Positions 43,983-49,340 of a DNA stretch of 64,000 nt are shown here, in pieces. Under the pieces are notes generated by a model. The model was not told where the DNA came from. It saw only the letters and a list, made by a program, of their open reading frames with translations, and searched no databases. Source of the stretch: Thermoanaerobaculia bacterium (GTDB taxonomy: Bacteria > Acidobacteriota > Thermoanaerobaculia > Multivoradales > Multivoraceae); NCBI GenBank assembly GCA_965116445.1, contig OZ220688.1, forward strand, positions 1,447,842-1,511,841, written 5' to 3'. Every line of letters starts with the position of its first letter. Position 1 is the first letter of the stretch. Both the position numbers and the translations under genes were made by a program.

Positions 43983-44015
43983 CGGATGCCGGCGGGGACG
44001 CCGGCGCACCCAGTG
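43983..44015 (-). repeat. REP-like palindromic repeat (unoccupied IS target)
   Basis: Reverse complement is CACTGGGTGCGCCGGCGTCCCCGCCGGCATCCG; lies between convergent SDR and thiolase genes. Confidence 0.88.
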
Positions 44016-44035: not shown

Positions 44036-44097
44036 CGGGTGGCGCGACCCCGCGCCACCCGTGAAACAGTCCGTGCGTCCGTCATCGGACGCACGGA
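44036..44097. terminator. Two perfect hairpins between convergent genes (possible bidirectional terminator or RNA stabiliser)
   Basis: CGGGTGGCGCG-accc-CGCGCCACCCG (44036-44061) and TCCGTGCGTCCG-tcat-CGGACGCACGGA (44070-44097); no strong U-tract. Confidence 0.5.
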
Positions 44098-44156
44098 TGA
44101 CACGCCCGGCGCACCCGGTGTGCGGGTGCCGCCGAGGGCGCCGTGCGCGCAGCGAC

Positions 44157-47745: not shown

Positions 47746-47920
47746 TCGGGGCGGGCGAGGCGGACTCTTCTTCGCGGACTAGGCGCTCAAGTTTCAAGTA
47801 CACGAACGCACTTCATCTTGGCCGCCCACTGGGTAATGGGATGGTCCGCCCCGCACCCTTACGGCCTCTCGTTGGGGCCAGAATGGTGTTTTCTTCCGAA
47901 CAACAAGGAGGAGGCGGACC

Positions 47921-48982
47921 GTGAAGGAGGTTACTCGAGTCGGTATCGATCTGGGCAAGCATGTGTACCAGGTGTGCGGGATGGACGCGTCGGGCGCGGT
48001 GGTGTTTCAGCGTCAGTTGAAGGCACCGCGGCTGATGGAGTTGATGTCGCGGCTCAAGCCGTGCCTGGTGGGGATGGAGGCGAGCTGCGGCGCGCACCAC
48101 TGGGTGGAGAAGCTGAGGGATCTGGGCCACGACGTGCGGATGATGAGTCCGCAGTTTGTCCGTCCGTACGTGAAGTCGAACAAGAGCGACTACCACGACG
48201 CGGAGGCGATCTGCGAGGCGGTGTCGCGTCCGACGATGCGTTTCGTGCCTTACAAGACGAAGGAGCGCCGGGCGCTGCAGCAGATCCACCGAAGTCGGGA
48301 GACGATGGTTGGTGTGCGCACGCAGTTGGCGAACCAGTTACGTGGTTTTCTGCGGGAGTACGGGATCGTGCTGCCTCAGGGTCTGGCGGTGATCAAGCGG
48401 GAGGTGCCTGCGATCGCGTCGGACCCGGAGCGGGCCCTGCCGGGCGACTTTCGGGCTCTCTTGTGCATGCAGCACCAGGCGCTGATGCAGGTCGACGATC
48501 AGGTGGCGGATCTGACGGCGATGCTGGAGCGGGAGTCGAAGGAGAACCCCCTGTCCGAGCGTTTGATGTCGATCCCGGGGATCGGTCCGATGGTGTCGAC
48601 GGCGCTGGTGGCGTCGGTCGGCTCGGGCTGGGCCTTCAGCAGCGGCCGTCAGATGTCGGCGTTTCTCGGGCTGGTGCCTCGTCAGGCATCGACCGGCGGG
48701 CACACGAGGCTGTTGGGGATCAGCAAACGCGGGGACCGCTACATGCGGGCGCTTCTGATCCACGGTGCGCGGGCGGTGCTGCGCACAGCCCACAAGGGCG
48801 AGCGGACGCGGCTCAAGGAATGGGCTCTGGACGTCAAGCGGCGCCGGGGGGCGAACGTCGCCACGGTGGCCGTGGCCAACAAGCTGGCTCGAATCGCCTG
48901 GGCGGTGCTGCGACACGACGAACGCTACAGCGACGAACGCCATGTCGGCGGTCGAGCAAGGGACTCACGGGCCGCGGCGTAG
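47921..48982 (+). CDS. IS110-family DEDD transposase/recombinase
   Basis: GIDLGK (D), MEASCG (E), KSDYHDAEAI (D,D), IPGIG, LGLVPRQASTGG (catalytic Ser region), A.VAVANKLARI; AAGGAGGAGG RBS. Confidence 0.97.
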   Translation: MKEVTRVGIDLGKHVYQVCGMDASGAVVFQRQLKAPRLMELMSRLKPCLVGMEASCGAHHWVEKLRDLGHDVRMMSPQFVRPYVKSNKSDYHDAEAICEAVSRPTMRFVPYKTKERRALQQIHRSRETMVGVRTQLANQLRGFLREYGIVLPQGLAVIKREVPAIASDPERALPGDFRALLCMQHQALMQVDDQVADLTAMLERESKENPLSERLMSIPGIGPMVSTALVASVGSGWAFSSGRQMSAFLGLVPRQASTGGHTRLLGISKRGDRYMRALLIHGARAVLRTAHKGERTRLKEWALDVKRRRGANVATVAVANKLARIAWAVLRHDERYSDERHVGGRARDSRAAA

Positions 48983-49054
48983 ACGGCTCGGGGAACAGCG
49001 AACCAACGATAGGAGAATCGCCCCACCAAGCAGTTTGCGGGGACTCATTCGAGC

Positions 49055-49215
49055 GATGGCGAAACAGGTCGGACCGGCGCGTTGAGAAGCCTGAGTCGGC
49101 GCAGGGCCCATCAAGAGGCCGTCTGGGTGTGAAGAGGCCGACGCGCGCGTATTCCATCGGGGCCAGGGAGCTCTCTCTCAGAGACTCCCACCAACAGGCC
49201 GAATACATGCAAGCA
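49055..49215 (+). ncRNA. Putative bridge RNA / seekRNA of the IS1111-type element
   Basis: Nested stems 49077-84/49139-46, 49089-92/49135-38 and 49105-08/49117-20 enclose CGGCGCA (49097-49103) and CTGGGTG (49123-49129), which match the two halves of the insertion target. A second hairpin (49161-49200) is flanked by TTCCAT and ATACAT, resembling the IS ends. Boundaries approximate. Confidence 0.82.
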
Positions 49216-49251
49216 ACTGCACCTACCTCGCCAGAAACCCGGAAAGAGCCC

Positions 49252-49277
49252 TTGCACAAGCGGGGCGGACCATACAT
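49252..49277 (+). promoter_or_regulatory. Outward -35 (TTGCAC) that forms a sigma70 promoter with the left end on circularisation
   Basis: The predicted circle junction reads TTGCAC-N17-CATAAT. Confidence 0.75.
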
Positions 49278-49340
49278 GCGCCGGCCTTCTGGCCGGCATC
49301 CGCTCCGGCCTGCCAGGAGCGCGCGCGGCAGGAGGCGACG

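Follow-up and report, generated by a model that had tools for sequence, protein, structure and literature searches.

A 64,000-nucleotide (nt) stretch of the genome of a Thermoanaerobaculia bacterium (contig OZ220688.1; here called the window and numbered from its first letter) carries, at positions 47834-49276, an insertion sequence (IS) of 1443 bp. This element is very probably a member of the IS1111 family with a DEDD transposase that is guided by an RNA encoded 3′ of the transposase gene, and its target is the repetitive extragenic palindromic sequence (REP) of its own host. The anatomy of the element, its site specificity, the covariation that defines the structure of the RNA and the covariation between guides and targets are all displayed by the DNA. 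All the features described below are on the + strand unless stated otherwise.

The model that we favor proposes that an RNA of about 140 nt, encoded just 3′ of the gene and folded into two internal-loop modules, guides the DEDD transposase. The first module would read the REP target by means of two contacts that overlap on TG, and the second module would read the ends of the element, so that one of its strands would pair with the left end and the other would match, in the same sense, the right end, the common T and the bases with which the right flank begins. The circular copy would then be joined to the REP at a single T, without duplication of the target, and both the transposase and the RNA would be made mainly after excision. 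Production of the RNA and its binding by the transposase, circle formation and the chemistry of strand exchange are inferred here from the published mechanism of the family.

The element lies between the two halves of a REP. The left half, CACTGGG (47827-47833), is followed by the T at 47834, and the left flank thus ends in CACTGGGT (47827-47834). The right half (49277-49302) begins with a T and continues, at 49278-49302, with GCGCCGGC, a 6-nt loop and GCCGGCATCCG, i.e., a hairpin that is closed by GCCGGC and followed by ATCCG. The T is common to both ends of the element (47834/49277), hence the boundaries 47835-49277, which also enclose 1443 bp, are equally valid. The first-pass annotation of this DNA, which was made from the letters alone, had claimed that removal of the element with this single shared T rebuilds a REP, and this was reproduced: when the joined flanks were compared by script with the reverse complement of the uninterrupted REP copy at 43983-44015 (− strand), 29/33 positions were identical, and the four differences were all located within the hairpin loop.

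Three observations led us to consider this repeat a real REP family. First, the 14-nt core CTGGGTGCGCCGGC, with at most one mismatch allowed, had 576 matches in the 4.89-Mb genome, compared with 13 for a reversed control. Second, a census that required the hairpin counted about 450 free REPs, 315 of them perfect, 104 with one mismatch and 29 with two. Third, a gene for a 227-aa Y1 transposase (IS200-like and RAYT-type, PF01797 with the HVH motif) adjoins a REP cluster in the host genome. At G000:C1:21783-26282 the RAYT-type PF01797 gene (227 aa), which is followed by a REP cluster, is located between two copies of the element (L139 and L140). The unit formed by the element and the RAYT gene is repeated there in tandem with a 2439-bp period, and the two element copies have an identical 40-nt left flank and differing right flanks.

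The host genome contains 23 full copies of the element, all 100% identical over 1443 bp, in addition to five fragments. If the first-pass annotation was correct, other copies were expected at the same site, and this is where they were found. ACTGGGT precedes 25/25 left ends, and 25/26 right ends are followed by GCGCCGRC, in the form of GCGCCGGC or GCGCCGAC. The orientation relative to the REP was uniform among all the copies, and only one base is common to the element and the target. The sites that are occupied were perfect 15-mers in 23/23 cases, which would have a probability of ~3e-4 to 1.4e-3 if insertion ignored mismatches. The single exception among the right ends is a full copy that directly abuts a partial copy. 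At G000:C1:17924-20271 a partial copy, beginning at element position 538, comes directly after a full copy, and the two are bordered on either outer side by a normal REP half; such a pair may result from an off-target event in which a resident copy was hit, or from a tandem dimer that underwent an internal deletion. Finally, the second arm of the hairpin was missing at two right ends, those of a full copy and of a truncated copy, which have an identical 40-nt flank and perhaps go back to one event. Since these two right ends sit in sites without the second arm, the hairpin is not required, and it is a linear sequence of 15-16 nt that is read.

The guides to this target can be read in the non-coding region 3′ of the gene. 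The 5′ guide, GTCGGCGCA (49095-49103), is complementary to the top strand of the common T and the right target half. It extends the 7-mer CGGCGCA (49097-49103) and is exactly the reverse complement of TGCGCCGAC, a variant of the REP in which the common T is followed by GCGCCGAC. Its match was exact for 10 of the 25 target-flanked right ends, and for the other 15 (the GGC variant) it involved a U-G wobble. The 3′ guide, CTGGGTG (49123-49129), repeats the left target half, with T and G added, in the same sense, and would therefore pair with the bottom strand. The target contacts of the two guides overlap on TG. The first reading of the DNA had placed the strings CGGCGCA and CTGGGTG on opposite strands of an internal loop, which the helices described below bear out: the guides face each other in the internal loop of the target module and flank the hairpin at 49104-49120. 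The order of the guides and their overlap agree with the order published for IS1111 seekRNAs, in which the top-strand match is located 5′ of the bottom-strand match and the two overlap in the target (PMC11187229).

In a GC-rich genome with hundreds of REPs, the two 7-mers could have arisen by chance, or a REP fragment could have been captured in the non-coding region. Indeed, one 7-mer alone was present in 1140 of 20,000 mononucleotide shuffles of the non-coding region. However, both 7-mers together were present in only 9/20,000 shuffles. Furthermore, the strings are in opposite senses around a conserved hairpin, unlike the layout of a single REP copy, and relatives whose targets are unrelated have their two guide strands arranged in this way as well, with 16-19 nt between them in most of the elements. 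We thus find it hardly credible that the matches are a product of chance or capture, and the reading of the two strings as guides is maintained in what follows.

The structure of the RNA was analyzed in an alignment of 45 sequences, i.e., that of the window and those of 44 relatives with 44-87% protein identity. RNAalifold predicted six helices with 26 pairs, and 20/26 of these pairs showed compensatory changes. In the cells of the helices 92% were paired, compared with 68% in shuffles and 28-37% when the partners were slid. Cells changed on both sides numbered 285, whereas 98 were expected, and none of 500 shuffles reached the observed value. The helices were also recovered when the sequence of the window was folded alone. 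An RNAalifold run on 9 close sequences had given compensatory change in 0/57 pairs; these 9 sequences are too similar, and the 45 more distant ones were therefore used. The six helices define two internal loops, and the strands of these loops match the target and the element's own ends. The target-binding module (49077-49146) is formed by the stems 49077-49084/49139-49146 and 49089-49092/49133-49137, the internal loop and the hairpin 49104-49120. The donor-binding module (49147-49214) has a closing GC/GC pair (49147-49148/49213-49214), a stem (49161-49164/49197-49200) and an inner hairpin (49167-49170/49185-49188). In a search of Rfam, the weak matches to HIV-1_DIS, DUF3577 and MIR4380 were below their gathering scores and were rejected as chance.

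Relatives of the element were found in 13 other genomes of the host family, 12 of them in the host genus, and the covariation set for the genus comprised 17 full copies from 8 genomes, with 8 distinct non-coding regions. In these relatives the 5′ guide is ACCCGCGCA or GCCCGCGCA and the right half of the REP is TGCGCGGGT or TGCGCGGGC, whereas the element in the window combines GTCGGCGCA with TGCGCCGRC. Three positions of the guide differ from those of the window, and the three target positions that pair with them differ as well. When the 5′ guide of each of the 17 copies was compared with its own right flank, the match was exact in 13, had one G-T wobble in 1 and one mismatch in 3. In a pattern search for REP variants that covered five genomes, G035 was found to contain 571 copies of the matching REP class, almost all of them listed as GCGCGGGTC, which fits its guide. 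This comparison indicates that, within one genus, the 5′ guide has changed together with the right half of the host repeat. The REP variant CTGGGTGCGCGGGTC, with its 571 matches across the genome, forms tandem arrays at G035:C1:743538-743768 and 751684-751810, regularly spaced by 36 nt and 28 nt.

The same relationship was observed across the family. An exact-match search, which found both guides in 22/60 elements, was replaced by a scored search with a non-cognate null. With this search, the mean score of the cognate guide-target pairs was 13.7/16 (60 elements, from many phyla), compared with 10.7 for 3388 non-cognate pairs, and 33/60 elements were above the 99th percentile of the non-cognate null. 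Hence, the guide-target covariation that had been suggested as a check on the first-pass annotation was seen both in the relatives of the genus and in the family.

These data also bear on whether the RNA is needed at all to recognize the target. The transposase protein alone might recognize the REP, for instance by means of its hairpin, and the matches in the RNA would then be incidental. The REP is indeed a hairpin, IS110 and IS1111 elements have long been thought to read such structures, and no RNA of the element has been observed beyond one ambiguous metagenome contig. However, a protein acting alone does not account for a guide that changes with its target in the genus and across the family, nor for the sites of the relative L037 and of the two right ends that may go back to one event, none of which has the second hairpin arm. 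In addition, a requirement for the RNA has been published for the family (PMC11187229). Recognition by the protein alone is thus very improbable, and we retain recognition of the REP by the two guides of the RNA.

The second internal loop carries two candidate donor guides. The first one, ATACATGC (49203-49210), reproduces, in the same sense, the final 5 nt of the right end together with the common T and the GC with which the right flank begins. The donor guides were counted only in the 46/60 elements with a target-loop score of at least 13/16. The cognate 6-mer of the ATACATGC guide was found at the equivalent place in 42/46 of these family members, compared with 6/276 non-cognate trials, and seven end types were represented. 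As for the base after this 6-mer, it fits the flank in 35 relatives and both flank and left end in 4, and there is no relative in which only the left end is matched; since a G occupies that flank position almost without exception, this agreement does not count as independent covariation. The second candidate, ATTCCAT (49151-49157), is complementary to positions 3-9 of the left end (ATGGGAT, 47836-47842) with one U-G wobble. A guide of this type had 7/7 pairs, wobble included, in 25/46 family members, and was exact in 14/46. A donor guide that extends into the target flank is reminiscent of the handshake guides of IS621, which pair with non-cognate DNA (PMC11208158), and also of the flank requirement of ISEc11, although we infer this link by analogy.

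The anatomy of the element is that of the IS1111 family. The left end has the terminal extension TAATGGG (47834-47840), which opens with the nucleotide that element and target have in common, and then the 14-bp subterminal inverted repeat ATGGTCCGCCCCGC (47841-47854). This repeat is the exact reverse complement of the 14-bp right subterminal inverted repeat (49260-49273), outside of which there is a 3-nt extension, ACA. The boundaries given above thus follow the IS1111 end rule, with 7 nt beyond the left repeat and 3 nt beyond the right one. The left repeat ATGGTCCGCCCCGC is also present in the relatives L059 and L061, and the same end layout, with subterminal repeats and 7-nt/3-nt extensions, was found in 59/75 related loci. 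The start codon is 66 nt away from the left repeat, whereas 277 nt separate the stop codon from the right repeat. Subterminal repeats of ~11-13 bp or more with asymmetric extensions (7 nt left, 3 nt right) have been described as the diagnostic layout of IS1111 elements, together with a long non-coding region 3′ of the transposase gene (PMC11187229). In every family trait that DNA can address, the element agrees with IS1111.

The transposase gene (47921-48982) has a GTG start, preceded by the strong ribosome-binding sequence AAGGAGGAGG, and encodes 353 aa. The protein matches PF01548 (E = 8e-20, residues 7-147) and PF02371 (E = 2e-21), and in the PDB it matches ISCro4 (E = 3e-12) and IS621 (E = 2e-10), the two solved recombinases of the superfamily. 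Residues D10, E53, D90 and D93 were unchanged across 16 homologues, and from their position they presumably form the DEDD catalytic tetrad. Residues 250-259, GLVPRQASTG, fit the GL-P----S(t)G motif published as the C-terminal motif of IS1111 transposases (PMC11187229), and T258 aligns with the Ser of ISCro4. The best protein cluster for this transposase is 98% identical, and the nearest named records are labelled as Thermoanaerobaculia metagenome bins. The identity is 44-55% to the rest of the family outside the host genus, and at most 51% to plasmid-borne members.

A sigma-70-like promoter was searched for in the integrated element and none was found. In the circular form, however, the joined ends would assemble one, with the −35 box TTGCAC at 49252-49257, a 17-nt spacer and the −10 box CATAAT, which spans the junction (49275-49277 plus 47835-47837). 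This promoter scored 8-9/12 by script. Since only the circle junction assembles a good promoter, expression would take place mainly after excision. The lack of a promoter in the integrated form, together with the lack of any circle or polymorphic empty site in the sequencing contigs, could also mean that the copies are fossils of a past burst and that the element is no longer mobile. Yet the 23 copies, in which the reading frame is open, show 100% identity along their 1443 bp, the perfect targets that are still free number in the hundreds, and a promoter that is formed at the circle junction is the usual arrangement in IS1111 elements (PMC11187229). We therefore regard loss of mobility as quite improbable, and consider the element in its RNA-guided form to be still capable of movement.

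Several observations weigh against the proposal of an RNA-guided element. The RNA did not stand out from its shuffles in folding energy, with z = −0.42 over 295 nt and −1.05 over 142 nt, and an Rfam search returned no family at threshold. Because the energy is unremarkable and the covariation is strong, the support for the structure is comparative and not thermodynamic. The circle junction, the empty site and the joints were not seen in the contigs of four sequencing runs, in which the uncovered parts are uninformative. The only trace in an RNA library was a 169-nt contig (49097-49265, with 6 differences) from a poly(A) "transcriptomic" metagenome run, which contained a twentieth of the sampled words, and this contig may be DNA or may derive from a relative. 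The left-end guide ATTCCAT has moderate support, less than any of the other three guides. The host and the relatives differ (A/T) at the distal left position of the target, and the 3′ guide does not follow this difference; in L035/L060 the guide GCCGCCGCA is one base off the complement of TGCGCCGGC, the only observed site; this mismatch reflects either an off-target event or a usual REP variant that was not seen. Finally, the relatives are not independent, so that the statistics overstate the case.

For the analysis of the crossover, the ends of 59 relatives were compared; the remaining 16 of the 75 related loci were dropped because they had no ATGG-type subterminal repeat of at least 9 nt at the expected distance, or had less than 12 nt of flank. 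The first base of the element was identical to the first base of the right flank in 57/59 relatives (T/T 32, C/C 24, A/A 1). The second base was equal in 13/59, and it was a purine on both sides in 59/59 (A/G 45, A/A 6, G/G 7, G/A 1). At the level of sequence, the single common base is thus a real regularity of the whole family. The "apparent 1-nt core" of the first-pass annotation therefore stands in so far as the first base covaries in nearly all the relatives, while a one-base and a two-base stagger are both compatible with these sequences. The length of the shared sequence varies within the family, since ISEc11 shares four bases.

The crossover could indeed be a 2-nt pyrimidine-purine step, TG in the target and TA in the donor, in which the first base has to be identical and the second one can be any purine. 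The two target guides overlap on two bases, TG, the donor-loop guide continues with TG beyond the right end, all 59 family members have a purine at position 2 of both donor and target, and the core of IS621 is 2 nt long (PMC11208160). However, a mismatched second base would give a heteroduplex and hence mixed junctions, and yet 25/25 left junctions were T-AATGGG and 25/25 target-flanked right junctions were ACAT-GCGCC. Moreover, the A at position 2 may be fixed because the −10 box of the junction promoter includes it. With junctions that are uniform in every copy, the data favor a one-base crossover, and we hold the two-base step to be less likely than not. With considerable reserve, as an idea that may well prove wrong, we suggest that the crossover in this IS1111 clade needs identity at only one nucleotide, that the donor guide crosses this nucleotide into the flank and would serve both excision and the handshake, and that the 5′ guide would be naturally retargeted to the REP of each host. 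If this were true, one RNA would recognize the integrated right junction for excision and would also act as a handshake during insertion. The core size of IS1111 members may already be contained in the supplements of PMC11208160 or PMC11187229.

Other sequences were found at the copies and at their flanks. The copy at G000:C1:180029-183601 (L141) is interrupted near position 660 by an IS21-family element of 2.1 kb, which encodes IstA with an rve domain and IstB (E = 4e-80), and 5 bases of the element are repeated on both sides of it. Truncated copies at 2926115 and 4499444 (L142 and L143), broken near positions 143-149, abut similar terminal sequences; the IS21-family element has therefore struck this IS more than once. 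A second palindromic repeat (CATCCGTGCGTCCGATGACGGACGCACG-like) is present beside some REP halves, namely at 44070-44100 of the window, near the uninterrupted REP, and in the right flanks at G000:C1:117819 and 2927376. In the window, a GC-rich hairpin at 49306-49337, just beyond the REP, has a sub-threshold chance match to HIV-1 DIS (27.8 bits, the cut-off being 35). This hairpin probably represents a further palindromic repeat or else the terminator of the convergent gene.

RNA guidance by a seekRNA or bridge RNA was published in 2024 for IS1111 and IS110 elements (PMC11187229, PMC11208160), so the idea is not new, and the published work includes a REP-targeting member of IS1111, ISPa11. The known mechanism is unchanged by the present findings, which raise two modest questions, whether the crossover is of one base and what a donor guide extending into the flank would do. 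All four guide strands are found in one genome together with both DNA substrates and some 450 candidate target sites, a fully readable natural example of an RNA-guided recombinase. The comparative set is suited to ask which positions of the guides matter, how many bases have to be shared at the IS1111 crossover, and how host repeats are tracked. The labels "programmable" and "safe harbour", which had been attached to the element on first reading, describe properties that it may have.

The closest parallel is ISPa11 of Pseudomonas aeruginosa, which also inserts at a fixed position of a REP, has its seekRNA 3′ of the transposase gene and shows the same order of guides, top-strand match first (PMC11187229). 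ISPa11 differs in host lineage and in the sequence of its target, and its seekRNA was reported to co-purify with the transposase (PMC11187229). ISEc11 (Escherichia coli / Shigella) has the same length, 1443 bp, and forms a circular intermediate with a junction promoter. It needs its 3′ non-coding region, and it needs target-like flanks for circle formation (PMC11187229). Its target, however, is a short linear sequence and not a REP, and its left end has four bases in common with the target flank, compared with one here. ISPpu9 and ISPpu10 of Pseudomonas putida are IS110-family elements that occupy REPs, and ISPpu9 has a small-RNA gene 3′ of the transposase gene; the likeness to these two is by description only.

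The first-pass annotation had called the protein an IS110/IS1111 recombinase, and the comparison with IS621 narrows this to the IS1111 type. IS621 is a DEDD recombinase system that also has a REP as target, with a two-loop RNA that reads target and donor on both strands (PMC11208160, PMC11208158), and its protein is a detectable homologue of the window transposase (E = 2e-10). In IS621, however, the RNA is encoded 5′ of the gene, at the left end, and the left-target guide is located 5′ of the right-target guide (PMC11208160), whereas here the RNA is 3′ of the gene and the order of the guides is reversed. Furthermore, the subterminal repeats of IS621 are only 2-3 bp long, in contrast to the long ones of the element described here, and a CT dinucleotide core is common to its donor and target (PMC11208160), whereas the element of the window shares a single base with its REP.

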